64,000 nt of DNA from Candidatus Parcubacteria bacterium. GTDB taxonomy: Bacteria > Patescibacteriota > Minisyncoccia > Minisyncoccales > JAGMDC01. Each line of letters opens with the position of its first letter. Position 1 is the first letter of the stretch. Made by a program: the position numbers and the translations under genes. The stretch lies in the NCBI GenBank assembly GCA_023128895.1, contig JAGMDC010000003.1, positions 219,651-283,650 of the forward strand, given 5' to 3'. Below the pieces are notes generated by a model. That model had not been told where the DNA came from. It made no database searches and saw only the letters and a program-made list of their open reading frames with translations. Positions 16,790-64,000 of this stretch are shown one piece after another.

Positions 16790-16796
16790 TTTTTAT

Positions 16797-17360: not shown

Positions 17361-17385
17361 AGCGGCTCATGCTTAACGCCGCCAT

Positions 17386-33918: not shown

Positions 33919-34014
33919 TTTTTCTTTTTTTCTATCAATTTAATTAAATTCTTTGACTTTTTGTTCAGCTTTATTTTTCATAAATTATTTAAAATAATTT
34001 TTGCCGAATTTGGA

Positions 34015-34863
34015 CTACCAAGTTACTTCGTCAATTTTTTTATATTTTTCCTCAATTTTATCTTTATCTGGACATATCTCTTTATACTCACACCAGGGAC
34101 ATAATTTATTAATATGGGGCAACAAATCATTGTCGTCTCTAGCTTTTTTTATAGCCGTAATTATCTTATTCTCTATTTCTTTTAATTCATCTTTAGTCCA
34201 CACTATATCATAAACTCTTGAATACTTAATATAAATCAATCCGGCTCTAATTTTTTCCGCAAATGGATTAAGATTAGATGCTATAACTGCATAAATAGGG
34301 ATCTGAAGATCCTCCTGCATCATCTTTTCTACGTTGTTATGGTAAGGCAATTTTCCAGTTTTATAATCCCACACTGCAATTGAAGAATTTGAATTTTGAT
34401 CAATCCTGTCTATCCGACCAGCTAAAATAAATTCACCCATATCGTACTCCATCCAATCTTCCAAAGATAGCGGAACTACTGATAAATCCGTACTTGAAAT
34501 ATAATTGCTTAGTATCGCAATAGCTTTTAGTCCAAAAGCTTTTTCTTGCTCTGCAGATCCAAATAACTTTATTCTTTCTTCATCGCTCCAGTAATCATTG
34601 CTCCAACCATTTTTGGGCATCCTGGCCCATGAATATTTTAGCATTTTACTTAAATCTTGATGTTTTCTCTTATCTACTGGAACTTTCGCAATATCAAAAA
34701 AATCGTTAAGAACTGAATGTATTACTTTGCCCACAAAACTCTCAGGTCTTTCAATGAACTCTGCTTTTATTTCTTTATCGCAATGACACTTAAATTTAAA
34801 CGGACATTGAAGATAAACATTTAACGCGTTTGGAAATATTTTTTTTGGAAATATATATGCCAT
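34015..34863 (-). CDS. PD-(D/E)XK nuclease, Cas4/RecB-like with Cys cluster
   Basis: GRIDRID...VWDYKTGK nuclease motifs. N-terminal CPFKFKC and C-terminal CPWCEYKEIC cysteines. Confidence 0.75.
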   Translation of the reverse strand: MAYIFPKKIFPNALNVYLQCPFKFKCHCDKEIKAEFIERPESFVGKVIHSVLNDFFDIAKVPVDKRKHQDLSKMLKYSWARMPKNGWSNDYWSDEERIKLFGSAEQEKAFGLKAIAILSNYISSTDLSVVPLSLEDWMEYDMGEFILAGRIDRIDQNSNSSIAVWDYKTGKLPYHNNVEKMMQEDLQIPIYAVIASNLNPFAEKIRAGLIYIKYSRVYDIVWTKDELKEIENKIITAIKKARDDNDLLPHINKLCPWCEYKEICPDKDKIEEKYKKIDEVTW

Positions 34864-34899
34864 AATTTTATTTTAAATTAATTATTTTTAAAAATTTTC

Positions 34900-35118
34900 T
34901 TAATTTTTTCTTTCATATTTTCTTAATAAATAAAGAATTAAGACAGCAGAAAGAAAATAAGCTAAAACAGGAGTAATGTGATATTCTATACTTAACCAAT
35001 ACCCACTACTATATTCTTTTAATATTCCATTAACAGCCCAAATTACTGTTCCGATTTCAGCAACTTTCGTCCAGTTATTTAATAGCCATCTAAAAATTGT
35101 CTTAATTTTTTCTTTCAT
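34900..35118 (-). CDS. small membrane protein, hypothetical
   Basis: Start at 35118 behind AAAGGAG. Two TM helices. The gene is bracketed by a 28-nt direct repeat. Confidence 0.4.
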   Translation of the reverse strand: MKEKIKTIFRWLLNNWTKVAEIGTVIWAVNGILKEYSSGYWLSIEYHITPVLAYFLSAVLILYLLRKYERKN

Positions 35119-35254
35119 AGATTTACTCCTTTCAGAATTTTTAATCAAATTAAATAACTAAATTTACATGGGCCGTATCGCTGTAAACCCGGTAATTTTT
35201 CTATGATCCGTTGCCCTGACATCTAAAAGATTTTTTATTAACGGACTCACATTT

Positions 35255-38200
35255 TTATTTAAGCTGTTTTTTAAATTCATAATATCTAACCGGGTTCCTT
35301 TGGAACAATCGCACAACAATTTTTTTAACTTGCTTGTTTGTCTTTGGAAAATCTCTCAACAAAGAAATAATTTTATCAGAGTCGTGGATTTCTAATTCTT
35401 TAGGAAATTGAGTAATTAAATCAAAAGCATCTAAAAACTTTTGTTTGTCACCTTGCTGGTCAAAAAGTATTAAAATATCCTCATTATAAAGCGATGGCCA
35501 CCAAGACATCTCCATGGTTTTCTCTTTTCTAAAGTTTTCATCGTAAAAAGTTTTTTCTGTTTTTAAGCATTGAATATATAAATTATACCATTCGTCAAAA
35601 TAGCATTTTTTCTCCATGCCCTCCTTTATGGTCATATAAATAACATTAAACACTTCGTGATTGTATTCTTTAGAAAGATGATTAAGATATTTGTAAGCAA
35701 GATTAAATAATTTCTCTGCGTCTTCTGATTTATAATTTAAATCTCTTATTAAATGTTCAAATTGTACCACAAATGAAAATCTCTGTTTTGGTTCTATCTT
35801 ATCTATCGCCTCAAAAAGTATCTTCTTAAACTTTTTGTCATTATACTTATCAGGGCCTAAATCATTGTAATATTTAGTTGTCTTCCATTTCCAATTTTTA
35901 AAAGCATCCTTTCTAAATTCAGCAAAAAAAATAAATAATGGCGCCGCTTCGGCAATTGCCTCGTCTGGAAACTCTTTGAACCTATTCACAAAAATCAAAG
36001 CATCTTTCTCATTTAAAATTCTGATATGATTAAAAACGGTTAAGATACTTTTTGCTAGAGCCTTTTTAACATTGTCGGAGGCTTTGGCTATATCCATTAA
36101 CAACCTAAATGCTGTCTTCTCAATTTTTTTAGCCCGCTCCAATGCCTCTTTTTTGTCTTTACCAAAAAACAAAACATTTCTATCGTCTGGCAAGACTGTT
36201 AATCTATTCTGTGCTAATTGAGACAATGTAAAACAAGCCATATGCTTCACATACCAATTTTCATCTTTTGTAAGTTTTTCTGTTAAATCAATAAGTTCTT
36301 TAAGATAGTCCCGACCACTTAAAACAGAACATTTCATTAAAACCCAAGCACACCAACCACGAGTAGAAGTAATTGAACCCGGCTCTTTGCCATTCTCAAT
36401 CCTTTGGTGCTCGTTATATTTATTTTCCGGATCTTCAGAATCCTTACCCGGCAAATATGGATCTGGATCATTAATAAATACTTCAATAATTCTTAAAGCT
36501 TCTTTGATTTTCTTATTTCGAGCCAATCTTTCAGAAAACTGAACTAATGCCTCCCGAGCTTGGCTAAAGGTTAATTTTTTAACGATTTTATTTATATCAT
36601 TATCTAAATTATCCAAGAACGGATTTATAAATTCTTTATAAACCTTCTCTAACAACTCAATATCATCTGATTGGTCATTGCCTCTATAATTAAACAAACT
36701 AAAGCATAATATAATTTGCTGATTTTTACTCAAAGTTTTTTGGGTTGCCAACTTTTTTAGAATTTCTAGTCCTTTGGCAAAATCTTTTTTCTCAAAATAC
36801 TTCTTTAAAATATCATGTAATAATATCGCAACCTCATAGGTCTCAAAATTATCGTACTTTTTAATGAACTGTTTCCTGCCAATAAAGTCATTGAACATTT
36901 CAATAGCACTATCAAAATCACTTTCCATTATCGTACGAATATTTTGTATAACATTTATTTCAGCCCTAAATCGTTCATAATATTTAGGATTTTTAAGCCA
37001 TTTCTTTAATTCTTCTTTGGCTTTCTCATGTCCTCGTTTAGCCAATTGCGAAACGATTTCTTCTACAAAAACGCTCACTGGAATACCGTATTTTTCTGTG
37101 CTAACCTCAACCAATTTCCATTTTCTATAGTCAGAAAGATTAGGGCGGTTTCTTAACTCTTGATAAATCAAATCTGTTTTATGGGGAATTCCTCTACGAG
37201 ACAATATAAATTCCTTTAAAATCTCAAAAGCTTCCTCGGATATTTTCCTATTGCTACTTTGATACCTTTCTAAGACAATCGGCAGGGTTGCCCGATTTAA
37301 AAAATCTGGCCTGTTTTTGCTAACTGCTTTTTTTATAACTTTACTTTTGGTTTTAGAATCTGTCTTGCTTATACAATTTTGAAAAATAAATTTCCAAGCC
37401 AAATTTTTATTTTTGCTATCGTTGTAATATTTCTTTATGGCTGGTTCTAAAACGAAACCAATAAAATGTCTATCTCCGACTGTGTAATGATGACCAACCG
37501 ATGAAGTCATCCCGCCGCTCAACTCCCAGCCGTTAAAGATTTCTTTCCCTTTGTGTTTTCCATACAATTCTTGGTATTGAGAAACAAATTTTTTTGTCAG
37601 TTCTTTAAAACGATTTTTGAAATCATCATCCAGCCACTGCTTTAAAATCGTAAAGATATCAGACGGGGTATAGTGGCTGAATTTACCGTCATCTTTTACA
37701 AGGTTGAAAGTATCAACTATCAATTTATATATTTTTTCTCGTAGGATAGAATCCGCTTTTTGATGTACCTCTTTGAGCAACTTTGCTACTTCTCCTCTTT
37801 CCCAAGAACTATCCCGTTGCGCTTTTAAATAGAAAATATCTTCCCGTCTATCGGTAATTAACTTTTTAACAATTTCAAAGACATCATCAATAAATTTATT
37901 ATCTTTATCATTATCTAAAATCTTTTTTGTAATTTTGACGACATCAACATCAAAAAACTCTTGCTGATAAAATCTTCTTATTCTACCAAGATTACTCTTG
38001 AAAAACTCAAGAATATACTTTTTATTGTTTTCTGTATGAAGATTACTTTCAAAAATTCTAAATAAGCTGAAGGAAAAACGATAAATTCTATAAAGTTCCC
38101 ACAGATTATTCCAATCTTTCAAATTATCAATTTTCTTATCCTTTATGCGATCAAGCACAAAGAACATCAGAGCTGGTTTAGACGAGAGAGCAGAAAGAGA

Positions 38201-38929
38201 ACTTTGCGCCCATTCAGGAGCTTTATTGTCCTCTATAGCTGTTATGAGATTTTGCAACTGCACTTCTGTCTTTACGCGCTCATCATCAAAGTATCCACTA
38301 TATTTACTTACCTTTTTTCTGATAGATTCAATCTCATTGAGAATACCTTCCTTACGATAAATCGCGCCTTTTGCCGACCCTTCGTAAATCCTTTTTATAA
38401 GGATGCTATTCGCTTTAGATTCTAACTCATCTTCTGGTAGCCAAAAATCTAACAACTCACTAAACAAAGAGTAAACGATAAGATGGTTATCTTTTTCTTG
38501 GACTTGCCAGAATCTTACTTTATTCAGTGTAGCAATCTGTTGGTTGGAGAATTTTTTCTTCTTGAATTCAGGAGTTACAAATTCGCTCCAATATTTCATG
38601 TTTTCAACTTTGCTTTTTAGAGTTTTATTTAATTTGGTGCAGACAATTAGTATTTCGTCTTTTTCACTAATAGTAGTTTTTTTCAGAATGGAATTCAAAA
38701 TATTCTTTAGGTGTGAGAAGTTTAACTCTCCTTCCCAATTTTTTGATTCGCATATTATTTTACGTTCATCATTAAACACTAAATTAAAGTCCTCAAACTT
38801 AGGAGCTTCAAGTTGGATATAAGAAAAATTAAAATCACGAAGATACTGTAAAAACAACGACATTGCCGCCCACGCTTGCGCATTTATTCCTTTATAATTG
38901 TATTGTCCTTGTTTACTCATAATCTCCAT
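35255..38929 (-). CDS. giant (1224 aa) protein: N-terminal Cap4/DUF4297-like PD-(D/E)xK module plus long helical/HEAT-like region
   Basis: N-terminus YKGINAQAWAAM..., FEDF...CESK. The rest is alpha-helical with no named motif. An alternative start at 38920 gives an ATGAGTAA overlap. Confidence 0.6.
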   Translation of the reverse strand: MEIMSKQGQYNYKGINAQAWAAMSLFLQYLRDFNFSYIQLEAPKFEDFNLVFNDERKIICESKNWEGELNFSHLKNILNSILKKTTISEKDEILIVCTKLNKTLKSKVENMKYWSEFVTPEFKKKKFSNQQIATLNKVRFWQVQEKDNHLIVYSLFSELLDFWLPEDELESKANSILIKRIYEGSAKGAIYRKEGILNEIESIRKKVSKYSGYFDDERVKTEVQLQNLITAIEDNKAPEWAQSSLSALSSKPALMFFVLDRIKDKKIDNLKDWNNLWELYRIYRFSFSLFRIFESNLHTENNKKYILEFFKSNLGRIRRFYQQEFFDVDVVKITKKILDNDKDNKFIDDVFEIVKKLITDRREDIFYLKAQRDSSWERGEVAKLLKEVHQKADSILREKIYKLIVDTFNLVKDDGKFSHYTPSDIFTILKQWLDDDFKNRFKELTKKFVSQYQELYGKHKGKEIFNGWELSGGMTSSVGHHYTVGDRHFIGFVLEPAIKKYYNDSKNKNLAWKFIFQNCISKTDSKTKSKVIKKAVSKNRPDFLNRATLPIVLERYQSSNRKISEEAFEILKEFILSRRGIPHKTDLIYQELRNRPNLSDYRKWKLVEVSTEKYGIPVSVFVEEIVSQLAKRGHEKAKEELKKWLKNPKYYERFRAEINVIQNIRTIMESDFDSAIEMFNDFIGRKQFIKKYDNFETYEVAILLHDILKKYFEKKDFAKGLEILKKLATQKTLSKNQQIILCFSLFNYRGNDQSDDIELLEKVYKEFINPFLDNLDNDINKIVKKLTFSQAREALVQFSERLARNKKIKEALRIIEVFINDPDPYLPGKDSEDPENKYNEHQRIENGKEPGSITSTRGWCAWVLMKCSVLSGRDYLKELIDLTEKLTKDENWYVKHMACFTLSQLAQNRLTVLPDDRNVLFFGKDKKEALERAKKIEKTAFRLLMDIAKASDNVKKALAKSILTVFNHIRILNEKDALIFVNRFKEFPDEAIAEAAPLFIFFAEFRKDAFKNWKWKTTKYYNDLGPDKYNDKKFKKILFEAIDKIEPKQRFSFVVQFEHLIRDLNYKSEDAEKLFNLAYKYLNHLSKEYNHEVFNVIYMTIKEGMEKKCYFDEWYNLYIQCLKTEKTFYDENFRKEKTMEMSWWPSLYNEDILILFDQQGDKQKFLDAFDLITQFPKELEIHDSDKIISLLRDFPKTNKQVKKIVVRLFQRNPVRYYEFKKQLK

Positions 38930-39704
38930 CTGGTGGTAATATGCTTGGCTTTTTAAAAGATGGTTTTTTGATACTAACCTCTAATGATTCATCAATTGGC
39001 AACTCAATTTTTACAAATTTCCGATCTCCGAACCTATCTTGCTTGCTAAATCCTTGGGACGAGATAATTTTATGTATTATATTTTTTAAAGCCACCTTCT
39101 CAATTCGTCTTTCTTCTATTCTAGTCTTGGAGGATAATTCTTCAATTTTATCTTTTAATCGGAAAATAAAATTATCAATGAGGGAGGGTAGTAAATCTTG
39201 GTCTTTGGGATAATATTTTTCTAAAACTTCCTTAGCGAGGCCATAAACCAAACGCTGAATATCTTTTTCTGAAAAGATTCTATAATCCAATTTTATCGTG
39301 CTTAAATCAACGTCTTTCAAAGCCGTTGAAAAGTATTTTTCATCTATAGAGCTTACGCTCTTTATAGTTCTGTCGCCGGATAGTTTAACCACTAAAAAAC
39401 TAAACGACTTAACCGGCTCATCTTGAAAAATAAAATAAATAAAACAATTTTTCGGTATAGTTCTGATATATGTTAAGAAAAACTTAAAGATACTGTTTAG
39501 TTCTCGAGCGGATAAATCCTTTTGTGTTTTGACTTGATACCCTTCAAAATCAGAGGCCAGCCAAATTTCAAAATCCAATTTATCATTTTCGCAAATTAAG
39601 TATTCTAAAGAGCTGTTATTCTCTAAATAATGGTTCAGTAAAAAGTATATAGCGCACCAATCTTGATATCGGAAAGCATTTTGTGCTGAGACGCCGTTAC
39701 TCAT
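38913..39704 (-). CDS. Cap4/DUF4297-like nuclease-domain protein
   Basis: N-terminus AFRYQDWCAIYFLL, ENDKLDFE...GYQVKTQ (D...QxK variant). Confidence 0.5.
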   Translation of the reverse strand: MSNGVSAQNAFRYQDWCAIYFLLNHYLENNSSLEYLICENDKLDFEIWLASDFEGYQVKTQKDLSARELNSIFKFFLTYIRTIPKNCFIYFIFQDEPVKSFSFLVVKLSGDRTIKSVSSIDEKYFSTALKDVDLSTIKLDYRIFSEKDIQRLVYGLAKEVLEKYYPKDQDLLPSLIDNFIFRLKDKIEELSSKTRIEERRIEKVALKNIIHKIISSQGFSKQDRFGDRKFVKIELPIDESLEVSIKKPSFKKPSILPPDGDYE

Positions 39705-39710
39705 AGTTGA

Positions 39711-39785
39711 TTATATTTTTTCTACAATTTTAATCTCCTCCAATGTAAGGCCATAGAGTTTATAAACTTCTTCGTTTATTTTTTG
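39711..39785 (-). pseudogene. relic of a methyltransferase/type IIG enzyme C-terminus (QKINEEVYKLYGLTLEEIKIVEKI*)
   Basis: An in-frame 24-codon remnant bounded by TGA upstream, with no start codon. Lies 6 nt before the 38913-39704 gene. Confidence 0.5.
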
Positions 39786-39789
39786 TCAA

Positions 39790-41253
39790 TTAATATATTT
39801 CGATTGGTTTCTCGTAAATTTTTTCTGACACATATTCAATCAATAAATCAAAAAACAAATCTGATATATTTGCTTCTACCCTATTCGCTGCTCCTATTTT
39901 TTTAGCAATACTCTTTATTTTTCGATTTTCGATTTCTATTGAATATCCATTCCACCCATGTTTTAGATTACTTTCAGTCTCTTCGAACGGAGAAATTGTT
40001 TTTAAGAGATAGTAAGAAAATACATCATAGCCCCTTGTAGTATTTTCTTTATTCTTAATATCGTTTTTTATTTTCTTTAAAACAGAAACAAAATCAATTT
40101 TCATACCGCCGAAAATTGAAATAAAAAATTTAATGCCAATATTTATAATTTGTGAGATAACCGTATATCTACCGCCAAATGAATCCTTTCTATAATTTGA
40201 ATTTTTTAAAATTGGTATTTGATATTTCACGCCTTTTAATAATTGCCTCAAATCCAATTTTTCTTTTCCATCTAATTCCAGAGATTTTAATAAAATATCT
40301 TTTAAGAATATCGTTAAGAAGAATGCTGAATTATTTAATTCTTTACTTAAATTCTCATTCTCTGTTTGAAAACGCGAAATAATTTCATTCATTGCCTCTT
40401 CAATAATTTCTTCATTCTTAAACTGGAAAATTTCTACAGTGAAAAATTTATTAAAATATCCACTAAAATCAGTTTGCTCTCCATATTTATGATGAAAAAT
40501 ACTTTTTAGGTTTTGAATATCGGCAACAAGAATGATTTTATCAAAACCAAATTTATTTGGCAGTTCCTTATTTTGTAAATCAAAATGAGCGGAAAAAACA
40601 TTCAAAATTCTAAAAATATGTTCCGGGTCAATTCTTTCTAAATCATCTAAAATTAAAATACTTTGTTTCTCATTTTTTTGTTTTTGAATCTTTTCTCTCA
40701 ATAATTCGCTTAAATAATCTGTTTCTGCAATATTTTCTTCTTTGATTTTTTTCAAAAAATTTTCAATAATACCTTTTTCTCCCGCTTCAATCTTTTGTTT
40801 AAATGTCCAAAAATTTTCTACTAATTTTGCGGTTTCTTTTAGGGGCCGCCCTAGTTTTGGAATATACGAAAGCCCATTCTTAAATATTTCTGTAAAGTTA
40901 TTTTTGCCCCAAACAAAAAATAGCCGTTGCAGATCAATCAAATTATTATAATCATTCTCTTGAAAAATATCTTTGTTCTTTCTATTAAGTTCAACCAAAA
41001 TATCATATTTTAAAAATTCGGAAATGTCTTCATTTGAATTTATTTGATAATTAATAGGAGAAAAATGAAAAACTTCATACTCTTCTTGATTGGCTCTAAA
41101 AAACTCTTTCAAAAAATATGTTTTCCCGATTCCAAATTTTCCAGAAAACAAAATTCGGCTATTATCTTTTATTTCTAAATGTTCTTTAAATTTAGGGAAT
41201 AATTCTTCAATTGGAATTTTAAATTCTTCTTCTATTATTTTTTTATTTTCCAT
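39790..41253 (-). CDS. KAP-family P-loop NTPase
   Basis: Walker A GKFGIGKT and Walker B ILILDDLERIDPEHIFRILN, which is typical of KAP NTPases. Confidence 0.8.
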   Translation of the reverse strand: MENKKIIEEEFKIPIEELFPKFKEHLEIKDNSRILFSGKFGIGKTYFLKEFFRANQEEYEVFHFSPINYQINSNEDISEFLKYDILVELNRKNKDIFQENDYNNLIDLQRLFFVWGKNNFTEIFKNGLSYIPKLGRPLKETAKLVENFWTFKQKIEAGEKGIIENFLKKIKEENIAETDYLSELLREKIQKQKNEKQSILILDDLERIDPEHIFRILNVFSAHFDLQNKELPNKFGFDKIILVADIQNLKSIFHHKYGEQTDFSGYFNKFFTVEIFQFKNEEIIEEAMNEIISRFQTENENLSKELNNSAFFLTIFLKDILLKSLELDGKEKLDLRQLLKGVKYQIPILKNSNYRKDSFGGRYTVISQIINIGIKFFISIFGGMKIDFVSVLKKIKNDIKNKENTTRGYDVFSYYLLKTISPFEETESNLKHGWNGYSIEIENRKIKSIAKKIGAANRVEANISDLFFDLLIEYVSEKIYEKPIEIY

Positions 41254-41258
41254 ATTCT

Positions 41259-41336
41259 TTATTTGTTATTAAAATTTTCTACAACTTTGATTTCTTCACC
41301 AGTTAGATTGTATAACTCATATACCATTTTATCAAT
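41259..41336 (-). pseudogene. second relic of the same C-terminal motif (IDKMVYELYNLTGEEIKVVENFNNK*)
   Basis: 25-codon remnant bounded by TGA upstream, 5 nt before the KAP gene. Nucleotide-similar to the relic at 39711-39785. Confidence 0.5.
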
Positions 41337-41386
41337 TCATAGCTTAATCCATAGTACACTCTCTATGACCAAAAATTTAATAGGTT

Positions 41387-41797
41387 TTAATTGTTTCTTG
41401 ATAAAAAATTGACAATCTTTTCAATTGTTTCGTCTGGCTTTTTAAATACTTCTTTCTCCCAAACTCTCAAGACCTTCCAGCCTTCTCTTCTCAGGGCCAA
41501 CCCATTTTTTCTGTCTTTCTTTATATTATTTTCAATCTTTGCTAGCCAATATTTTTTAGGCAATCTTTTCTTTTGCTTCGAGAAATTTCGTCCGTGCCAA
41601 AAATCTCCGTCTATAAATACAGCCTTCTTTTTTCTCGGTAAAGCTACATCCGGCTTTCCACTCGCTTTCTTGTAATGTTTTTGGAAATAAATTCCCCGCT
41701 TCCGAAGTTCGCGAAAAATCAGCCTTTCAACTTTTGTATTTTCGGAGCGGATTTTCGACATTATTTCGCTTCTTTTCTTTTTTGTAAAAACATCCAT
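41387..41797 (-). CDS. vsr: very short patch repair endonuclease
   Basis: RSEIMSKIRS, FIDGDFWHG motifs. Confidence 0.9.
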   Translation of the reverse strand: MDVFTKKKRSEIMSKIRSENTKVERLIFRELRKRGIYFQKHYKKASGKPDVALPRKKKAVFIDGDFWHGRNFSKQKKRLPKKYWLAKIENNIKKDRKNGLALRREGWKVLRVWEKEVFKKPDETIEKIVNFLSRNN

Positions 41798-41889
41798 AAT
41801 TTTTTATACCCTGTGGATAACTACCGCTTTGAGTTTCGGTTTTCATTCGGGTATAATTAAATTATAACGCAAATAATTTTTATAGCAAT

Positions 41890-43470
41890 ATGCAAACTCT
41901 AACAAAAAAGCAAAAACAAGTTTTTGATTTCATTAATGCCTATAGGGAGGAAAACGGAATTTCCCCTACCATCGAAGAAATGAGGAAAAAATTGAAGCTT
42001 AAAGCCGTATCGACAGTGCATGAACATGTAAATACGCTAAAAGAAAAAGGCTATCTCTCAAAAAATGAAAATTCTGCTCGAGGAATTGTTCTAAAAAAAG
42101 AGATAAGGATAATTATTGACATTCCTATTGTAGGCAGAATAGCTGCTGGACAGCCTATAGAAGCTATCGAGGATTTTCAGGAAACTGTCCCCGTGCTGAA
42201 TCCAACAATTAAAAATTCAAAAGACTATTATGCTCTTCGCGTTATCGGAGATAGCATGATTGGCGAAGGCATTTTTGACGGCGATATTGTGATAATTAAG
42301 AAACAGACTGTTGCGGAGAATGGGCAAACGGTTGTAGCGATTATCGACGACAATGAAGCAACGCTTAAAAAACTTTATAGAGAGAAAAATAGGTTCCGGC
42401 TTGAACCAAGAAATACCAGCATGCTTCCGCTTTTTAGAAAGGAGGTCGAAGTAAGAGGCGTAGTCATCCAAGTAATAAGCAATATTTCCAGCAAGCCTGA
42501 AGGAAAAATTTTGAAAAAGGCTAATCACAGATTTAGAACTATAGATCTTTTTGCAGGCATCGGAGGAATACGCATTGGTTTTGAGAAAGCCGGATTTAAT
42601 ACTGTTTTTGCGAATGATTTTGACAAACAATGCAAGCTTACTTATGATTTGAACTTTTCAAAATCAAAACTCGTAGTTGAAGACATAAGAAAGATTGGCA
42701 TAGATGATCTGCCGAGGTTTGACTTTTTGCTCGGCGGCTTTCCCTGCCAAGCATTTTCTATTGCCGGATATAGGCAGGGATTTGACGATAAAAAGGGGCG
42801 CGGAAATTTATTTTTTGATATTGCGCACATTATTGACGCTCGCAAGCCGGAGGGTTTTCTTCTCGAAAATGTAAAAAATCTAAAAAGCCATGACGGAGGA
42901 AAAACTTTTAGAATAATCGAAGAAACCTTGAAAAATCTTGGCTATCATATAAAGCCTAGGGTCTTAAACAGTATGAATTACGGGGATATTCCGCAGAATC
43001 GAGAACGAATCTATATCGTAGGTTTCAAAAATAAAGATTATGCCGATAAGTTTTCTTTTCCCGATCCAGTAAGGCTGACGAAAAAAATCACTGATTTATT
43101 AGAGAAAAACGTCCAGGAAAAATATTACTATAATGGAAAACCTTTATATAAAAAGTTGGAAAAATTTGTGAAAGAAGAGGGAAAGGTATATCAATGGCGC
43201 AGGCAATATGTTCGCGAGAATAAAAGCGGTGTCTGCCCGACGCTCACGGCAAATATGGGCATGGGAGGGCACAATGTGCCTATTATCAAAGACAAGAAAG
43301 GCATTAGAAAGTTAACCCCATTAGAATGCGCTCGGGTCCAAGGCTTCCCAGAAAATTATAAACTGCCTCAAATTTCAGATTCTGCTCTATATAAACAATT
43401 TGGAAACTCGGTAAGCGTTCCAGTTATTGAAGCTGTGGCAAGACAAATGATAAAAGCGATGAAAAATTAA
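41890..43470 (+). CDS. fusion protein: complete LexA repressor (wHTH + S24 peptidase) joined to DNA (cytosine-5) methyltransferase
   Basis: The N-terminal ~200 aa are LexA-like (Ala-Gly site RIAAGQP, GDSM Ser, ATLKKL Lys). The C-terminal part carries C5-MTase motifs DLFAGIGG, GFPCQAFS, ENV and QFGNSV. It is a single uninterrupted 526-aa ORF. Confidence 0.9.
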   Translation: MQTLTKKQKQVFDFINAYREENGISPTIEEMRKKLKLKAVSTVHEHVNTLKEKGYLSKNENSARGIVLKKEIRIIIDIPIVGRIAAGQPIEAIEDFQETVPVLNPTIKNSKDYYALRVIGDSMIGEGIFDGDIVIIKKQTVAENGQTVVAIIDDNEATLKKLYREKNRFRLEPRNTSMLPLFRKEVEVRGVVIQVISNISSKPEGKILKKANHRFRTIDLFAGIGGIRIGFEKAGFNTVFANDFDKQCKLTYDLNFSKSKLVVEDIRKIGIDDLPRFDFLLGGFPCQAFSIAGYRQGFDDKKGRGNLFFDIAHIIDARKPEGFLLENVKNLKSHDGGKTFRIIEETLKNLGYHIKPRVLNSMNYGDIPQNRERIYIVGFKNKDYADKFSFPDPVRLTKKITDLLEKNVQEKYYYNGKPLYKKLEKFVKEEGKVYQWRRQYVRENKSGVCPTLTANMGMGGHNVPIIKDKKGIRKLTPLECARVQGFPENYKLPQISDSALYKQFGNSVSVPVIEAVARQMIKAMKN

Positions 43471-43473
43471 AAG

Positions 43474-44037
43474 CTACCAGACTTTTACATCGATTGCTGT
43501 CGGTTTAAGCTTCTTGGGCTTGATAATTTTTTTTGTAATGCTAAAACGAGGCCTTCTTCCCTGGGCTTGTTGCTGTCTAAACGTCTGTTTTTTATTAACC
43601 TTGATATTGTAGACTAACCTCGACGGTATCTTATAAATATTGAAAGTTCCGTCTAGCTTTCCGTTGTTGTAAAAATCTAAAAAATACAAATCATTCCAGC
43701 ATGATTTCGGCCCGAAAGAAGTAAGGTCCGATTCAACGCTAGAAGCCTTTACTTGCTCTGCCTTGTTCATACCTAAGTTAAAAGTGTCAAACGAAGCAGG
43801 AGAACTTCCCTGTAAAGAGATAAATCTCTTTGATCCCGAATATATGCAAAAAGCAACCTCTGAAAGACCTTCCGGAAAATTGGGTTCTCTGGATTTGTAA
43901 TCCCGCATGCCCAATTTTAGCTTTTTCCACATATTAAAAAGCCTTTTCCATTTTTTGCCATCCGCCTTTGTAAAGCTCATTAGCTCTATTATGCAGTTTT
44001 TTCCGAAAACTCTCGCTTTGTATTTTTTAATTTTCAT
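43474..44037 (-). CDS. putative type II restriction endonuclease
   Basis: Assigned by position: downstream of the controller HTH gene and convergent with the C5-MTase. 187 aa with no family assignable by eye. Confidence 0.4.
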   Translation of the reverse strand: MKIKKYKARVFGKNCIIELMSFTKADGKKWKRLFNMWKKLKLGMRDYKSREPNFPEGLSEVAFCIYSGSKRFISLQGSSPASFDTFNLGMNKAEQVKASSVESDLTSFGPKSCWNDLYFLDFYNNGKLDGTFNIYKIPSRLVYNIKVNKKQTFRQQQAQGRRPRFSITKKIIKPKKLKPTAIDVKVW

Positions 44038-57778: not shown

Positions 57779-58495
57779 TTATTTCCTGCCAATAGGCATT
57801 ATATATAAAGGATGTTCATTGTCCTGAATATTTAGAATTTTTTTAACTTTTTGGTCTTCAAAAGCGCCTATAACTGTTGTGCCGAGGTTCAAAGAAACTG
57901 CCTGCAAATAAACATTTTGAGCAGAATGGCCTGCTTCCATATAAACATACCTAATGCCTCTTTCTCCATATTTTTCGGTTGTTCGTTCATAAACCCCGGT
58001 AAATACTATAGCCATTGCTCCCTCTTTTACCGCGTTTTGAGACAAAGCGGCATCGCATAATTCAGTCCTTTTGTCCCCTGCCGCAATCTGCTTCAACTTA
58101 TGCTCTAAAGGATTGTATTTATAAACGCCGGGGGATAAATTACTCACATTACCAGCAATAATATAAACTTCAAGCGGATAAAGCGCGCCGGCTGAAGGAG
58201 CTATCCTAAAACCTTTTTGAGTGTCTGTAATTCCCTGCGCTGCCCAGACAAGTTGTGAAACTTCAGCAAGAGTTAATGGCTCATCTTTATAATCTCTTAT
58301 TGACCTCCTTAGAAACAGGGCTTGTTCAACCGAAATACTGCTGTCAGTACTTGGCTCAGGAAGATTTATTATTTCTTTATTTAAATCGGGTTCAAATTCC
58401 TGGTTCATATTTACTCGCAATAACATAAAACACACTCCTATACCCACAGCTATTATAATTGTTAGGATTACTATTATCGCACTGTGCTTTGTCAT
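57779..58495 (-). CDS. nitroreductase-fold protein (SagB/ThcOx-type dehydrogenase domain) with N-terminal TM anchor
   Basis: RRSIRDY and LYPLEVY motifs. Confidence 0.7.
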   Translation of the reverse strand: MTKHSAIIVILTIIIAVGIGVCFMLLRVNMNQEFEPDLNKEIINLPEPSTDSSISVEQALFLRRSIRDYKDEPLTLAEVSQLVWAAQGITDTQKGFRIAPSAGALYPLEVYIIAGNVSNLSPGVYKYNPLEHKLKQIAAGDKRTELCDAALSQNAVKEGAMAIVFTGVYERTTEKYGERGIRYVYMEAGHSAQNVYLQAVSLNLGTTVIGAFEDQKVKKILNIQDNEHPLYIMPIGRK

Positions 58496-58569
58496 AATGT
58501 ATTTTTAATTTATCATTTTTTTGATGAAAAAACAAGATGATAAAAATGAAAAAATAAAAAACGGGGTGG

Positions 58570-59709
58570 TTAAACCCGCAAATTTTTTCTTTTTTTTAGG
58601 AATATAGCTATTATTATGACCGTAAGCGCAAGGCCCACGATCACCCATGGTATTCTTGACATCGCTGTTTTCAATGCTGGCATCAATACTGGCGGCGGCG
58701 TTGCCATTGGCTGGCGTTTAGGTCGAGGTGTACTTACTACCGTATATTCCGGCTCTGTAAACGTTGGCGTTGTTACCTTCGTTGGCAATGGCTTCGGCGT
58801 CAATTTTTCCATCTCTTCTTTTGTCTTTATAAACATTCCTTGCGCGGCTTCCGGCAAAGGGCCTAAATCTATTGGATACTGTCTGTACCATCTTCCCACC
58901 CATATTTCCAAAAGACAATCCTCGTCAACGCCAGCTATTGGTGCATCAATATCAAAATCGATTTCTCCATCTCGTCTCGCTTTTGTTATCCCTGTTTCAT
59001 CAAAAATTTTCCACTCAATCTCCGTGTAACGCGGCAAATTGCTATCCCCCGTTACCTCCAAATCTCCGTCGTCTTCCCATTCTACGGTAATGTTTGTTAT
59101 ATTCGGCTGAACAACTTTTGTTTTTACCACTACTATTGCGGCGGAATCATGGCTCCCTGCTTTCTCAACTGATGCGTCAAGAATAACGCTTATTATTTGA
59201 TTTTTCGTTGTCGTTTGACTTCTCTCTTTGCGCTTTTGTAAAAATTCCTGTCTTTCTTCACCATTCGCGTATTTTTCGTTCAGCCCCCCAGGCGATAGAA
59301 GAACAACAGTACGCACCTTGCTTCCTGCTTTGCCTCCTAAAAATTCAATGTCGCCACGGCCGCTGGAAAAGTCGTATGTTTCAACTATTTTTCCTTTCTC
59401 GTTAATTACTGCTACATCCACCGGTTCAATATCTGCGTCAAATCGTATCGTTGCGTTTTGGTTGCTCAATATTAATATATCTACTTTCTTAGCTCTAACC
59501 GTAAACAACCTCGTTTCTATTGTTGTGAACCCTTGTTCAACGTTCACAAATTTGTTGTCGTTCTTCACATCAACCTCAACCGACATTATTTTTCCAGTGC
59601 CGGCACACGCCAACGACGTAGCAAACAGCAATACTCCTATTCCTATAAGCGTCAAACCAATTACTATTAATAACGCTTTTTGGAAAGAACTTATTCTTCT
59701 CTTTTCCAT
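58570..59709 (-). CDS. membrane-anchored surface protein, hypothetical
   Basis: N- and C-terminal TM helices and a Pro/Thr-rich stalk. Start at the ATG at 59709 behind AGAGGTGA. Confidence 0.5.
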   Translation of the reverse strand: MEKRRISSFQKALLIVIGLTLIGIGVLLFATSLACAGTGKIMSVEVDVKNDNKFVNVEQGFTTIETRLFTVRAKKVDILILSNQNATIRFDADIEPVDVAVINEKGKIVETYDFSSGRGDIEFLGGKAGSKVRTVVLLSPGGLNEKYANGEERQEFLQKRKERSQTTTKNQIISVILDASVEKAGSHDSAAIVVVKTKVVQPNITNITVEWEDDGDLEVTGDSNLPRYTEIEWKIFDETGITKARRDGEIDFDIDAPIAGVDEDCLLEIWVGRWYRQYPIDLGPLPEAAQGMFIKTKEEMEKLTPKPLPTKVTTPTFTEPEYTVVSTPRPKRQPMATPPPVLMPALKTAMSRIPWVIVGLALTVIIIAIFLKKRKNLRV

Positions 59710-59771
59710 TTTTATCACCTCTTTCTTCTTATATTTAATATAAGAATAACATATATTTCACAAAAAGTCAA

Positions 59772-59799
59772 CCCCCACACCTAGATATAGGTGTGGGGG
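59772..59799. repeat. third copy of the CCCCCACACC-N-GGTGTGGGGG hairpin
   Basis: 28-nt palindrome abutting the TTGACT -35 of the 58570-59709 gene. Confidence 0.75.
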
Positions 59800-59820
59800 C
59801 TTCGCTGCGGTTGCTGTTAT

Positions 59821-60930
59821 TTACGCGGTTTCTAAAATCTCTTTAAAAGCGATTATAACCTGTTTTAGTTCCAGTTTGGATATCCCGAAAACAGAAAGTT
59901 TAAAATACTTTGTCAGACCCGGCTTTATACCTGTAACCCCCCTTTTTTTGAGCGCGTTGTAAAGAAAAAACCTTCCTCTGGGATGTTTCAAAGAAATCTC
60001 ATAAAATGCATCTGCCTTAAAAAACATTAAATCATGCTTATGCGGCTTTTCTCCCATTTGTTCCAAACCCAATTTCTCCAATTCTTTTGAAAACCATTGC
60101 GCTTTTTCAACTTCTTTTTCCCAATTTTTTACTCTTTCTAAAACAGTGGGAAATGAGGCAATTAAAGTAGCAATAGCTGTTCCTCTTAATTCAGAACCTA
60201 AAAACTCTATTTCCTGTTGAGGATATATTTTTGATTTTCTCAACAAGGTTTTTTCCCATTTTTTATCCATGCCTAAAATACCAATAGGTCCTGATGAAGC
60301 CATAGATTTTTGTCCTGAACCAATTATGAAGTCAGCTCCTAACTCCTTCATAGAAACTGGCATCCTTCCTACTGTATAAGCTCCATTGATTAAATACGGA
60401 ACTTTGTATTTCTTAGCAATTCTTCCCAATTTTTTAGCATCAGGCAAATTTCCGTAATTTCCGTCAGGATAAGTTAAAAGAACCAAGGCTGGTTTATGTT
60501 TTTTTATTAAATCTTCATAATCCTCTACATTTATCTTATATTCCGGCTCTCCTGAACTTGGAACTTCAACAACTTTTAAACCTGCTCTTTGTGCCGCTAT
60601 AATCGTGGTATAATGCCTGTTCCCGTCAACCAGTATTGTTTCGCCTGGTTTTATAATAGAATGCATTATATTAAATATGCCTTCCCTCACTCCAAGGACA
60701 ATTCTAACAATATCTGCTCCCAAAAATTTTGGTAAGGCCTCTTGAATAAATTCTTTAATAAGAGGCACTTCCATTATCTCTAATCCAGGACTAATATCAT
60801 AAATAGAATATCCATTGCCAAATTCAACCAAAGCTTTTTGAGCAGGCTTAGTTAATTTTCCTCCTGTTTGGATAGGATTTAAATTAATTAATTCCTTATT
60901 TTTTCTTTCTATATTTTCAAATTTTTCCAT
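59821..60930 (-). CDS. Sep-tRNA:Cys-tRNA synthase (SepCysS) homologue, cysteine-free
   Basis: - INLNPIQTGGKLT N-terminal motif.
- PLP-lysine context GSGQKSMA.
- C-terminal GIKPGLTKYFKLS.
- The 369-aa translation contains zero Cys.
- Linked to SepRS and tRNA-Cys. Confidence 0.7.
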   Translation of the reverse strand: MEKFENIERKNKELINLNPIQTGGKLTKPAQKALVEFGNGYSIYDISPGLEIMEVPLIKEFIQEALPKFLGADIVRIVLGVREGIFNIMHSIIKPGETILVDGNRHYTTIIAAQRAGLKVVEVPSSGEPEYKINVEDYEDLIKKHKPALVLLTYPDGNYGNLPDAKKLGRIAKKYKVPYLINGAYTVGRMPVSMKELGADFIIGSGQKSMASSGPIGILGMDKKWEKTLLRKSKIYPQQEIEFLGSELRGTAIATLIASFPTVLERVKNWEKEVEKAQWFSKELEKLGLEQMGEKPHKHDLMFFKADAFYEISLKHPRGRFFLYNALKKRGVTGIKPGLTKYFKLSVFGISKLELKQVIIAFKEILETA

Positions 60931-60938
60931 TGTGATTG

Positions 60939-61009
60939 AGCGGGGCAGGAGAATCGAACTCCCGTAAGTCGCTTTGCAGGCGACTGCATTACCATTGTGC
61001 TAACCCCGC
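60939..61009 (-). tRNA. tRNA-Cys(GCA)
   Basis: 71 nt: acceptor GCGGGGT/GCCCCGC, anticodon arm GTCGC-CTGCAAA-GCGAC, T arm GGGAG-TTCGATT-CTCCT, discriminator U. CCA is not encoded. Confidence 0.9.
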
Positions 61010-61014
61010 ATTTA

Positions 61015-62535
61015 TTATGAGATTTCAACCTTAACTGTCATAAATACAGACCCTTTAATTCCAATTTTTTTGTGGTTTGCTTTAATATAATTCTGAACAT
61101 CTTTGGGTATGTCTAAATTTATATCCCTCAACGATCTTACAGCCCTCACCCTGTATTCAAAACTTTTTTTTCTATTTTCAACATCGCTGGCTATTTTATT
61201 AGCCAAGCCATCTATATAATCAAAACCAGTGGCAACACCCTCTGTTCTTGCAGAGCCAATAATGGTTCCATCCTTAACAATTATTTTATTAAAGCCAGCC
61301 GGACCGATCAACCGCTTGCCTTCCTCTATCTCAATAATTTTCACTTTAACATCACGAGTGTTTATTTTACCCTTCCAGGCAATAAATTCAACAGGCGCAA
61401 TCTTGTCCTTGTGCTTTTCAGCTGTTTTTTTAACCATTTTCGCTATTTCCTTTCCTATTTTTGTGTTCGGCTTTTTTATAATATAAACTGAATCCGCTAT
61501 TGCCTTGTCTGAAAATTTTGCTTCTGAATAAAACTGGGGAAACATTAATTTCCGTATGTCATCATATCCCTCCAAAACCATTGCCAAACGCTCAATCCCG
61601 AACCCGGCGTTAAACACGGGATATTCTATTCCGAAATTAGCCAGCGATATTGGCGAATACATACCAATATCCCCTATCTCAAGCCATCCGCCTTTATGCT
61701 TTACAAAAATCTCTTTCTCTAATTCATCTGCGTAATACTTGGATGTTGCCTGTTTTTTTACAAATTTTACTTCTTTGAAGCCGATTTTTTCTATGAGCTG
61801 TTTTACAATCTTTGCGCCAGCGTCTAAACTCATTTCAGGATCCATTATAACAATAGAAGCAGAATGATGAACGCGCAAATGACTCGCGTCTTCTTTTTGC
61901 TCGTTCCTATATCTCAAACCCAATGAAAATAAAGCAATCGGGAAATCTTTTTTGTTCTGCAACGCGCCAAGAGTATGATACCAAACAGCGGTCATATGGC
62001 TTCTTAGGGTAAGGTCTGTAATCTGGGGTTTCAATTTCTTGAATTCTGAAAATAAAGTAATAATCCCTGTTGCCTGCTCTGTTTTTATATTTAATTTTTC
62101 AACCAATGTTTCTGTGAGGTCATCGCTCTCTATTTTGCCCTTTTTATAGTCCCTGAGAATTTCTTTTAATTTTGCCTCGCTGAATTTGCCTATTAGCTTT
62201 TTTATTTGCAAAATTTTTTCTTTGCCTAGTCCTATGTCCGGTCTTGGCAGTTTTGCTAAATAAAACACTCTGTCTAATATCACCGCTGCTTCAGGCCCGT
62301 ATTCCCTATAAACATCTTCTGCCGGCAAAATGCACAAATTTTCTGTTTCGTCAAATCCAGTGTGTAAAAAAATCCTTCTTAATTTGTCAGACATTTTTCT
62401 AAAAACATGTTCCTGCCCGTGCCTTTCTCTGAGATTTACCTGCGTTTTTTTTGGCAATAACCTGGCTGTTTCCACCCAAGTTTTTTCAAAATCCTTTTTC
62501 GCGTCCTCTTTAATTTTTTTGATATTGAGTTTCAT
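61015..62535 (-). CDS. sepS: O-phosphoserine--tRNA(Cys) ligase (SepRS)
   Basis: 506 aa, collinear with archaeal SepRS as I recall it (AVILDRVFYLAKLPRPDIG, LTLRSHMT, SKYY, GFGIERLAMV, YDDIRKLMFPQ). Confidence 0.85.
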   Translation of the reverse strand: MKLNIKKIKEDAKKDFEKTWVETARLLPKKTQVNLRERHGQEHVFRKMSDKLRRIFLHTGFDETENLCILPAEDVYREYGPEAAVILDRVFYLAKLPRPDIGLGKEKILQIKKLIGKFSEAKLKEILRDYKKGKIESDDLTETLVEKLNIKTEQATGIITLFSEFKKLKPQITDLTLRSHMTAVWYHTLGALQNKKDFPIALFSLGLRYRNEQKEDASHLRVHHSASIVIMDPEMSLDAGAKIVKQLIEKIGFKEVKFVKKQATSKYYADELEKEIFVKHKGGWLEIGDIGMYSPISLANFGIEYPVFNAGFGIERLAMVLEGYDDIRKLMFPQFYSEAKFSDKAIADSVYIIKKPNTKIGKEIAKMVKKTAEKHKDKIAPVEFIAWKGKINTRDVKVKIIEIEEGKRLIGPAGFNKIIVKDGTIIGSARTEGVATGFDYIDGLANKIASDVENRKKSFEYRVRAVRSLRDINLDIPKDVQNYIKANHKKIGIKGSVFMTVKVEIS

Positions 62536-62576
62536 AATTATGAATGAGGAATAAATGGAAAAATAAATTTTTACAT

Positions 62577-62670
62577 TTATTCCGAGCGAGTAATTATGCG
62601 GCTTTGCCGCAATAATTTAGGAGTGATTTATTCCGAGCGAGTAATTATGCGGCTTTGCCGCAATAATTTA
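62577..62670 (-). repeat. tandem pair (period 51 nt) of the GCGGC-AAA-GCCGC palindrome unit upstream of SepRS
   Basis: ttattccgagcgagtaattatgcggctttgccgcaataattta occurs twice (62577-62619 and 62628-62670). Related to the R3 core. Confidence 0.8.
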
Positions 62671-62866
62671 TTTATGCGGAGAGGCAGGGATTCGAAGAGT
62701 TGCCCGAAGGCGGTGTTTCGCTTCGCTTCGCTTAGCGAAACGCGGGAGCAGGGTTCTCGCCGCACCTCTGCCTAATAAAAATTATCAAACGCCTACGGCG
62801 TTTAGAATTTTTATGCGGTACCTTTTGGTTAAAATCCGAACTTTTTTTGACGAAAATCCGGACTGC

Positions 62867-62944
62867 GAACTTTGACGCTCGGGCGAGGCGGAATTCCCCC
62901 CTTCCGCCTCGCCCTCGCTTCCGACGGCGATTTTTTCGGCGGGC
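62867..62944 (+). ncRNA. GC-rich hairpin-plus-terminator element, copy B (sRNA-like)
   Basis: Perfect 13-bp stem GGGCGAGGCGGAA/TTCCGCCTCGCCC, followed by TCGC...GCGA and T6. Confidence 0.4.
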
Positions 62945-62945
62945 T

Positions 62946-63530
62946 TTATCCAACTTGTCTAATCCAATCCCGAATATACATTCCTACTCGTTCTATATCT
63001 GTTGGTGCAAGTTCGCCACTATGCATAATGATATTGCGCGACTTTTCTAGTGTACCAATAATTTGTTTCGCCCAGTCTATACTACCAATATGAACTTCAA
63101 AAAATTTCCAATTTTCTTGCTTTGCCATAATAGAAATAAGATCTCCAAATTCCGTATAATAAATCATTGAGTCGCCACGAGGCGTGAGCCAACGCACATC
63201 TTTTTCCGATTTTTTCCGATTTTCTGCTTTATCGCGAATTTCTTTTTTTACACAAATTTCCCACCATTTTTCTCCTTTTTCTTCAAGTAATTTTTTTGCA
63301 ACAAATTCTCTTACTGAATTTTCAAATGCGCAAATAGCGGTATATACAACAGCCATTTTCCTTGATTTTACAACAAACCCCTCGTCCATGAGGGGAATAC
63401 CAAGTCGTTTGGATATTTCTAGTTCCCATGCTTCAGAAAAATCTCCCTTTGGTTTTCTTCCAGCCTTATCAAGAGCTTCCTCTGTTAGAAGTCCCCTGAA
63501 AGCAAAAGAATATAATTCATCATGATTCAT
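62946..63530 (-). CDS. HEPN-domain protein (Swt1/Abi-like)
   Basis: C-terminal R-x4-H motif (SRNIIMHSGEL). 194 aa, with a 1-nt gap to the upstream gene. Confidence 0.55.
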   Translation of the reverse strand: MNHDELYSFAFRGLLTEEALDKAGRKPKGDFSEAWELEISKRLGIPLMDEGFVVKSRKMAVVYTAICAFENSVREFVAKKLLEEKGEKWWEICVKKEIRDKAENRKKSEKDVRWLTPRGDSMIYYTEFGDLISIMAKQENWKFFEVHIGSIDWAKQIIGTLEKSRNIIMHSGELAPTDIERVGMYIRDWIRQVG

Positions 63531-63531
63531 A

Positions 63532-64000
63532 TTAAAACAAATGCTTCTTTAAACTTTTAAACAAAGCGTCATATACAGCTGGGTCCCTTGATTCTGGTAA
63601 ATGAATTTGAATATTATAATGAAGCTCGGTTTTTTGTAGTTTTCCATTTTCCATTCCATTAATAGGTTCCTCTTCAATCTCTTCTTGGGTGGGAGCAACT
63701 ACTGATTCTGCTTTATGTTCATCTATTTTTTCCTTTTTAGTATCTTTTTTTACCGTTGTTGTACCCCATTCAGCGTAATCAACTAGGGCTTTAAATGTAT
63801 TCGCCATTAAATGAAGTACTTTTTCTGAAATTTTACCTTGTGTTAATGTTTTAAACTTATTTTTTACTTCCGACTGAGTAAGTTCATTTGCTTTCGTATT
63901 AACGGCGAATAAATCCCCATATGCTTCTTTAACGGCTTCTGCCAGCACTTGTTTTGATTGTGATTGATCTAAAAATTTAAAGTATCTTTCTGTCGGTACA
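63532..64000 (-). CDS. hypothetical protein, 5' end beyond window
   Basis: The reading frame stays open upstream of the track start (GTG 63948) to position 64000. C-terminus YNIQIHLPESRDPAVYDALFKSLKKHLF. Confidence 0.45.
   Translation of the reverse strand, partial: VPTERYFKFLDQSQSKQVLAEAVKEAYGDLFAVNTKANELTQSEVKNKFKTLTQGKISEKVLHLMANTFKALVDYAEWGTTTVKKDTKKEKIDEHKAESVVAPTQEEIEEEPINGMENGKLQKTELHYNIQIHLPESRDPAVYDALFKSLKKHLF

Follow-up and report, generated by a model that had tools for sequence, protein, structure and literature searches.

Synthesis of cysteine (Cys) on its tRNA by SepRS (O-phosphoseryl-tRNA synthetase) and SepCysS, which turns O-phosphoseryl-tRNA (Sep-tRNA) into Cys-tRNA, has been found in Parcubacteria and Chloroflexi (Mukai et al. 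2017, mBio, PMC5424206); bacterial and DPANN archaeal SepRS-SepCysS(-tRNACys) operons are covered in a 2022 update from the Mukai group, in which the loss of Cys is not discussed. Three SepCysS residues, C39, C42 and C247 in Archaeoglobus fulgidus, have been implicated in persulfide relay and a [3Fe-4S] cluster (see Mukai et al. 2017, PMC5424206), and the persulfide-forming Cys were reported to be conserved in all SepCysSs "with only two exceptions". One of these exceptions, the enzyme of 'Ca. Parcubacteria' bacterium DG_74_2, lacks two of the three Cys and was colourless, indicating that it holds no iron-sulfur (Fe-S) cluster; given 40 mM Na2S, it converted 95-99% of Sep-tRNA to Cys-tRNA, and it was also active in E. 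coli (PMC5424206). Our literature search found no later paper taking up the loss of Cys in SepCysS. Here, we analyze a 64-kb stretch of Candidatus Parcubacteria DNA (the window), part of a 375-kb scaffold from a South China Sea metagenome (methane cold seep Site-F), which encodes a SepRS - tRNA-Cys - SepCysS operon whose SepCysS contains not a single Cys.

An initial annotation of the window had singled out this loss as odd. It is not without precedent, as Mukai et al. (2017) already had two such SepCysSs, one active with sulfide and the other in the clade of the window enzyme. The window protein thus extends the exception published in 2017 by a further bacterial enzyme, this one entirely free of Cys. 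What our analysis adds is that this exception is a sizeable, conserved clade present in both domains and marked by a motif of its own. Taken together with the genomic context described below, the protein probably takes part in a working tRNA-dependent Cys pathway in cold-seep Parcubacteria, drawing on a diffusible sulfur donor, most likely free sulfide.

Profile and structure comparisons agreed with the proposed family assignment. The protein scored 485.8 bits with TIGR02539 (cut-off 365.25, exceeded by 120 bits) and 463.1 with PRK09331 (cut-off 301), aligned end to end with the solved A. fulgidus SepCysS 2e7i (window residues 8-367, E = 4.6e-130, 53% identity) and matched the solved SepCysSs 3wkr and 5x6b at E = 7e-104. 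It shares length and domain order with A. fulgidus SepCysS1 (clade I, 2e7i/2e7j), apart from a 4-residue stretch near loop 144-147 that is absent here as in other bacterial SepCysSs. Other families dependent on pyridoxal phosphate (PLP) were considered and rejected, with desulfurase, aminotransferase and SepSecS models all scoring far lower. A cysteine desulfurase (SufS/NifS/CsdA) is contradicted by scores of 38 bits for SufS (cut-off 475) and 27 for NifS (cut-off 531) and by the missing catalytic Cys. The solved SepSecS 2z67 matched only marginally (E = 0.0024 versus 4.6e-130 for SepCysS), and the Pfam SepSecS model (PF05889) covers only residues 108-367, the C-terminal two-thirds of the protein.

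Within this otherwise familiar framework, all three conserved Cys are replaced relative to 2e7i (C39 by Y44, C42 by S47 and C247 by S246), whereas A. fulgidus SepCysS1 has them all, and the His before the PLP lysine has become Gln (H208 to Q207). Zero Cys in 369 residues and the motifs GYSIYDISPG, SGQKS and FLGSELRG were read exactly as in the initial annotation, and the conservation of the catalytic Cys, on which it had relied, proved real, as 95/95 canonical relatives have C39, C42 and C247. The residues expected to handle cofactor and substrate are unchanged: K208, R82, H106 and Y107 of the window enzyme correspond to A. fulgidus K209, the PLP-binding lysine, and to R79, H103 and Y104, the pocket assigned to the phosphate of Sep (2007 crystal-structure literature), and these four positions are invariant in all 120 relatives, the Cys-less clade included. 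The replacement of SGHKS by SGQKS, likewise counted among the oddities, is present, but is not linked to the Cys loss, since GSGQKS also occurs in the otherwise canonical 'CG bacterium No. 3' (Mukai 2017 alignment file). Proteins free of Cys are not rare in the window (6 of about 50 open reading frames (ORFs) of at least 150 aa); the weight lies on the loss of the catalytic positions rather than on zero Cys as such. A sequencing error masking Cys codons is excluded, as several samples and sequencing runs yielded the exact protein, on 9 independent contigs in all, and the motif is kept in 24 clusters of homologues.

These 24 clusters (about 70 member sequences), drawn from the best 120 of 1264 homologues, share the substitutions at the Cys sites and form one monophyletic group in a neighbor-joining tree, with members from Parcubacteria, Altiarchaeota and Aenigmatarchaeota. 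Their common motif, GYS-x-YD-x-SPG ... F-x-G-S/C-E, has Tyr in place of C39 (25/25) and Ser or Ala in place of C42, followed by Phe at position 244 (25/25), Ser (19), Cys (5) or Gly (1) at position 247 and Glu at position 248 (24/25); F243 and E247 of the window protein are accordingly clade-specific. At a stringent cut-off, clade-specific columns were confined to the three Cys sites and their immediate neighbors, while a looser cut-off added mostly conservative changes elsewhere, indicating focused remodelling of the sulfur/cluster site in what is otherwise an ordinary SepCysS. A fully Cys-free subtype with SGQKS or SSQKS comprises the window protein and clusters P0001-5 and P0010, the named ones being bacterial (Parcubacteria, Nealsonbacteria). 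Another subtype, which includes Aenigmatarchaeota, carries a new Cys before His-Lys (SCHKS), and yet another, which includes Altiarchaeota, keeps C247 (FLGCELRG). Pairwise dN/dS (ratio of nonsynonymous to synonymous substitution rates) among six Cys-depleted genes was 0.07-0.15, indicating strong purifying selection.

Both published exceptions can be placed relative to this clade. 'GB archaeon No. 4' from the Guaymas Basin (Mukai 2017 Data Set S1) is the only sequence of the window clade in the alignment file of that study and evidently its second 'exceptional' SepCysS. It carries the clade motif (DGYATYD-ISP-G ... EIEFIGSE-SRG) and matches the Aenigmatarchaeota subtype of clusters P0031/P0033. 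It differs from the window protein, with its SGQKS and no Cys at all, in being archaeal and in having gained a Cys directly before His-Lys (GSCHKS). The DG_74_2 enzyme (KPJ56533.1), in turn, resembles ours in being a SepCysS of the candidate phyla radiation (CPR), encoded in a SepRS-SepCysS operon and devoid of the Cys needed for the persulfide and the [3Fe-4S] cluster. It differs in keeping C39 and in its motifs (GYSVCDIWYSG and FLGHYQKG), whereas the window enzyme has lost all three Cys, contains no other and shows the conserved Y...S...F-G-S-E motif. At 61% identity to the window protein, DG_74_2 belongs to cluster P0042 elsewhere in the tree, and this position together with its different motifs indicates an independent loss of Cys. 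The published exceptions, of which DG_74_2 is the one assayed, show that SepCysS activity does not require the full set of three Cys.

The window gene is the last of a tightly packed minus-strand operon, SepRS - tRNA-Cys - SepCysS, followed by a terminator-like hairpin directly 3' of the SepCysS stop that is the likely operon end (Table 1). The upstream gene had been called SepRS, which we can affirm: it reached 470.8 bits with TIGR00470 (equivalog cut-off 380.65), and its residues 1-505 are collinear with residues 1-533 of A. fulgidus SepRS (2du3), including the anticodon-binding domain. In that domain it is of bacterial type, with Ser instead of Ile444 and a deletion of the 8 residues that correspond to A. 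fulgidus K448-E455. Bacterial SepRSs lack the motif that binds m1G37, have a hydrophilic residue at Ile444 and accept A37 tRNA-Cys of bacterial type in vitro (Mukai 2017, PMC5424206). The deletion lies where the m1G37 motif would be and thus fits A37 and U73 of the window tRNA-Cys, which has the anticodon GCA and the discriminator U73, and whose CCA end is not encoded. Both ARAGORN and Rfam confirmed this canonical tRNA 5 nt after the SepRS stop. The SepCysS start codon (ATG), again as described initially, follows 8 nt past the tRNA 3' end (spacer CAATCACA) and lacks a Shine-Dalgarno sequence.

Table 1. Coordinates of the SepRS-SepCysS operon and of the elements flanking it in the window
Feature	Position	Strand	Called by
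45-nt direct repeat in two perfect copies spaced 51 nt apart, with a GCGGC-TTT-GCCGC hairpin in either copy	62575-62670		
SepRS (O-phosphoseryl-tRNA synthetase), 506 aa, 1 Cys	61015-62535	-	ORF call and TIGR00470
tRNA-Cys(GCA), between both genes	60938-61009 (ARAGORN); 60939-61009 (Rfam, 56.7 bits)	-	ARAGORN; Rfam
SepCysS homologue, 369 aa, zero Cys	59821-60930	-	ORF call and TIGR02539
Intrinsic-terminator-like hairpin, 14-bp stem with 8 GC pairs, then T-run	59770-59801	-	

Linkage of these components extends to related loci. A tRNA-Cys(GCA, U73) accompanies SepCysS in the window and in loci L005/L010, L008, L012, L013 and L014, the short contig L011 being without one. In L005/L010 and L008 the order is tRNA-Cys - SepRS - SepCysS, and the operon is flanked by core genes, DnaX, GtrA, DnaB and RecR among them. 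While the SepCysSs of L005, L008, L010 and L011 are 81-83% identical to the window enzyme, their SepRSs reach 43-45%, and position 37 of the tRNA-Cys is A in the window and L012, but G in L005, L008, L010, L013 and L014. This discrepancy between the two proteins and the mixed position 37 indicate that the three modules have been reassorted among CPR genomes. As for the earlier suggestion of horizontal acquisition, the evidence for a recent event is weak: the operon has a GC content of 34-37%, matching the 35.8% of the window and thereby arguing against recent foreign DNA by composition, and the relatives keep their operon among core genes. Shuffling of the modules and the spread of the clade across domains are nevertheless evident.

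An extended arrangement came from L012 (DAOVKD010000089.1:333-3870, binned 'Woesearchaeota'), which reads SepRS - tRNA-Cys - 276-aa kinase - Cys-less SepCysS. The kinase is a SerK/SbnI-type free serine kinase by its match to PDB 6nr6 (E = 4e-17), with NCBIfam scores of 102 bits for SbnI and 76 bits for SerK, both under the cut-off, and all three proteins, SepRS, kinase and SepCysS, contain zero Cys. Judged by its genes, the operon looks like a self-contained cassette leading from Ser via Sep and Sep-tRNA to Cys-tRNA; the 64-kb window holds no SerK homologue. In L012 (1917-1925) as in the window (60930-60938), an ORF starts 7-8 nt past the tRNA-Cys 3' end without a Shine-Dalgarno sequence, and processing of the tRNA would leave the downstream gene with an almost leaderless mRNA.

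Several lines of evidence converge on a functional SepCysS: the intact PLP and substrate residues, purifying selection, linkage to SepRS and tRNA-Cys, the activity of DG_74_2 and the host's need for Cys. On the last point, window ORFs contain 1.1% Cys on average and two radical-SAM proteins carry CxxxCxxC, indicating that the organism uses Cys normally and needs the genuine amino acid. We infer activity of the window enzyme itself from its family membership, the selection acting on it and the DG_74_2 precedent. In the pathway we envisage, SepRS would charge the operon-encoded tRNA-Cys(GCA, A37, U73) with O-phosphoserine, the Cys-free SepCysS would bind the resulting Sep-tRNA through its unchanged PLP lysine and Arg/His/Tyr phosphate pocket, and elimination of phosphate would give a PLP-bound dehydroalanyl-tRNA. 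From here on, we infer both a donor and roles for the clade-specific Tyr, Phe and Glu. The sulfur would be taken straight from a diffusible compound, HS- being the most likely one, with neither an enzyme persulfide nor a [3Fe-4S] cluster involved. Tyr (at C39), Ser (at C42), Phe244, Ser/Cys247 and Glu248 most likely fill the vacated cluster cavity and hydrogen-bond within it, and these replacement residues may position or deprotonate the incoming sulfide. Free sulfide or another external donor had been among the explanations offered initially, and it gains support from DG_74_2, which is active with sulfide, and from the sulfide-rich cold-seep origin of the scaffold, with which its use fits. 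Biosynthetic enzymes tend to spare their own product, and the loss of Cys from enzymes that make Cys-tRNA is in line with this tendency.

Some observations weigh against this interpretation. The assayed enzyme, DG_74_2, lies outside the clade, keeps C39 and has other replacements, and the in vitro assay used very high sulfide, namely 40 mM (Mukai 2017, PMC5424206). A merely vacated site would not need Tyr, Phe and Glu to be so strictly conserved, which hints at a specific role or a specific donor, and a thiol may still help in the part of the clade that kept C247 or gained SCHKS. Finally, the status of CysRS, of a second SepCysS and of a second tRNA-Cys is visible for the 64-kb window only. 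Within that scope, no CysRS was found among window ORFs of at least 200 aa or in the annotation of L001, no second SepCysS in the window or the fetched related loci, and no SepCysE or SepCysSn in the window or beside the operon in related loci.

An explanation we hold to be unlikely, though worth keeping in mind, is that the enzyme is competent in beta-elimination but relies on a separate sulfur-carrying partner encoded elsewhere, be it a persulfide carrier, a ThiS/MoaD-type thiocarboxylate or a canonical SepCysS paralogue that would form a heterodimer and supply its Cys across the interface. Even for canonical SepCysS, the source of sulfur in vivo has yet to be settled, and some archaea have two SepCysS copies (Mukai 2017, PMC5424206). 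Moreover, the same environments hold canonical enzymes that share up to 77% identity with the window protein (P0008), and the conserved Tyr/Glu/Phe patch could be a docking or recognition surface. However, the surroundings of the operon in the window and in 13 related loci showed no conserved gene for a sulfur carrier, rhodanese, TusA, ThiS or second SepCysS, and a scan of the genome collection, whose peptide patterns would miss divergent paralogues, returned one SepCysS locus per genome. DG_74_2, for its part, works alone with sulfide and also in E. coli, which has no native partner. Two points keep a partner in consideration: the view is limited to 64 kb of the genome, and the strictness with which the motif is conserved is otherwise unexplained. 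That same strictness (Y 25/25, F 25/25, E 24/25) would be expected of a new specificity, that is, of a neofunctionalized clade that uses another nucleophile or makes another product than Cys-tRNA, for example a selenium or thiosulfate adduct, dehydroalanyl-tRNA or seryl-tRNA. A model for such chemistry exists in SepSecS, a related fold-type-I PLP enzyme that acts on tRNA-bound phosphoserine via dehydroalanyl-tRNA and takes a small, diffusible selenium donor without any enzyme persulfide or catalytic Cys, just as proposed for the window enzyme with sulfur; it belongs, however, to another family, with tRNA-Sec as tRNA partner and selenophosphate as donor. The Pfam SepSecS match to the C-terminal two-thirds of the window protein points the same way, but is offset by the marginal match to the solved SepSecS. 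Further, the gene is coupled to SepRS and a standard tRNA-Cys(GCA, U73) in most bacterial loci, and essential Cys motifs occur at ordinary frequency in host proteins, so that another product at UGU/UGC codons would be lethal. Nor did the window show a SelD: its AIRS-family gene (7466-8488) adjoins PurL (a 1274-aa ORF matching the FGAR-AT gene of L008) and is therefore read as PurM. Conversion of Sep-tRNA(Cys) into something else, which the initial annotation had offered as an option, is hence very unlikely.

Its further suggestion of an inactive enzyme is contradicted by the selection data and by the replacement motif conserved in 24 clusters. In this scenario, the protein would be a catalytically dead remnant, at most a Sep-tRNA-binding or scaffold subunit, with Cys-tRNA supplied by CysRS; we consider this extremely improbable. 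All three persulfide/Fe-S Cys are indeed gone and the His before the PLP lysine is now Gln, but Gln-Lys is a normal motif in related class-V aminotransferases and, as noted above, is found in otherwise canonical SepCysS. A dead protein is also at odds with dN/dS values of 0.07-0.15, with the invariant PLP lysine and phosphate-pocket residues and with the persistence of the clade across bacteria and archaea. Moreover, SepRS is intact and co-transcribed, and Sep-tRNA(Cys) left uncorrected would be harmful. Finally, a Cys-depleted SepCysS was active in experiment (DG_74_2; Mukai 2017).

None of this alters what has been published, namely that exceptions of this kind occur and are able to function. 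A natural family of 24 or more clusters in which the whole Cys triad has been swapped for another conserved motif under strong selection offers a clean system for studying the role of the Cys and the [3Fe-4S] cluster and the minimal chemistry of the reaction, and it represents a module that, in sulfidic habitats, is shared across domains by DPANN archaea and reduced CPR bacteria. Lacking both cluster and Cys, such a SepCysS could express more easily and be more oxygen-tolerant in the engineering of Sep-to-Cys (or selenocysteine) conversion. A tentative extension, which we regard as possible but rather doubtful, is that a Tyr/Glu-based site captures the diffusible sulfur donor and that SepCysS, together with the Cys-poor SepRS and the Cys-free kinase of L012, constitutes a cassette for Cys coding built from cysteine-free proteins. 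If true, Cys coding would have a natural way out of its chicken-and-egg problem, and synthetic biology might gain a tool that tolerates oxygen.

Upstream of the operon, the 45-nt repeats listed in Table 1 lie 40-135 nt before the SepRS start and occur nowhere else in the window; possible functions are an operator, an attenuator or a terminator of the upstream gene. Beyond them, the intergenic region 62675-62945 stands out by its 54% GC in a genome of 36% GC, and contains GCGAA repeats and a 20-nt GC-rich inverted repeat (62874-62921). A degenerate tRNA-Ser-like piece is visible by eye, with a 5' end GGCAGAGGTG... and a 3' end ...GGGCAACTCTTCGAATCCCTGCCTCTCCGC, the latter at about 62676-62705 on the minus strand, but it was called neither by ARAGORN nor by Rfam at E <= 1; the fold z-score was -2.3. 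Of the tandem palindromes and the tRNA-Ser 3' fragment noted initially, the former correspond to the hairpin-bearing repeats, and the latter is seen by eye only. A tRNA in decay and the site of an old integration are possible origins of this piece.

Further upstream follows a defense-type island (62946-64000 and, past the end of the window, L001:3400-7985) with HEPN_Swt1, DUF5343, a GIY-YIG-like gene, a helix-turn-helix protein, a LexA/S24-N6_N4 methyltransferase fusion and a TaqI-family restriction enzyme; relatives carry core genes at this place. A second defense-like cluster at 32950-44037 encodes DUF3644, a PD-(D/E)XK nuclease, a Cap4-nuclease-like protein, a Bsp6I-family restriction enzyme, a 1224-aa protein without Pfam match and a 487-aa Cys-free KAP/NB-ARC-like NTPase, as well as a 526-aa ORF whose first residues match the LexA/S24-methyltransferase fusion of L001. 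Directly downstream of the operon (57779-59718), a 382-aa membrane-anchored protein without family match is accompanied by a SagB-type (nitroreductase-fold) dehydrogenase (TIGR03605, 147 bits). At 15156-18468, a radical-SAM enzyme with 13 Cys overlaps a LigB/Memo-like gene and is followed by a 187-aa ORF and, on the opposite strand, a second radical-SAM gene, an arrangement that resembles the AmmeMemoRadiSam trio.

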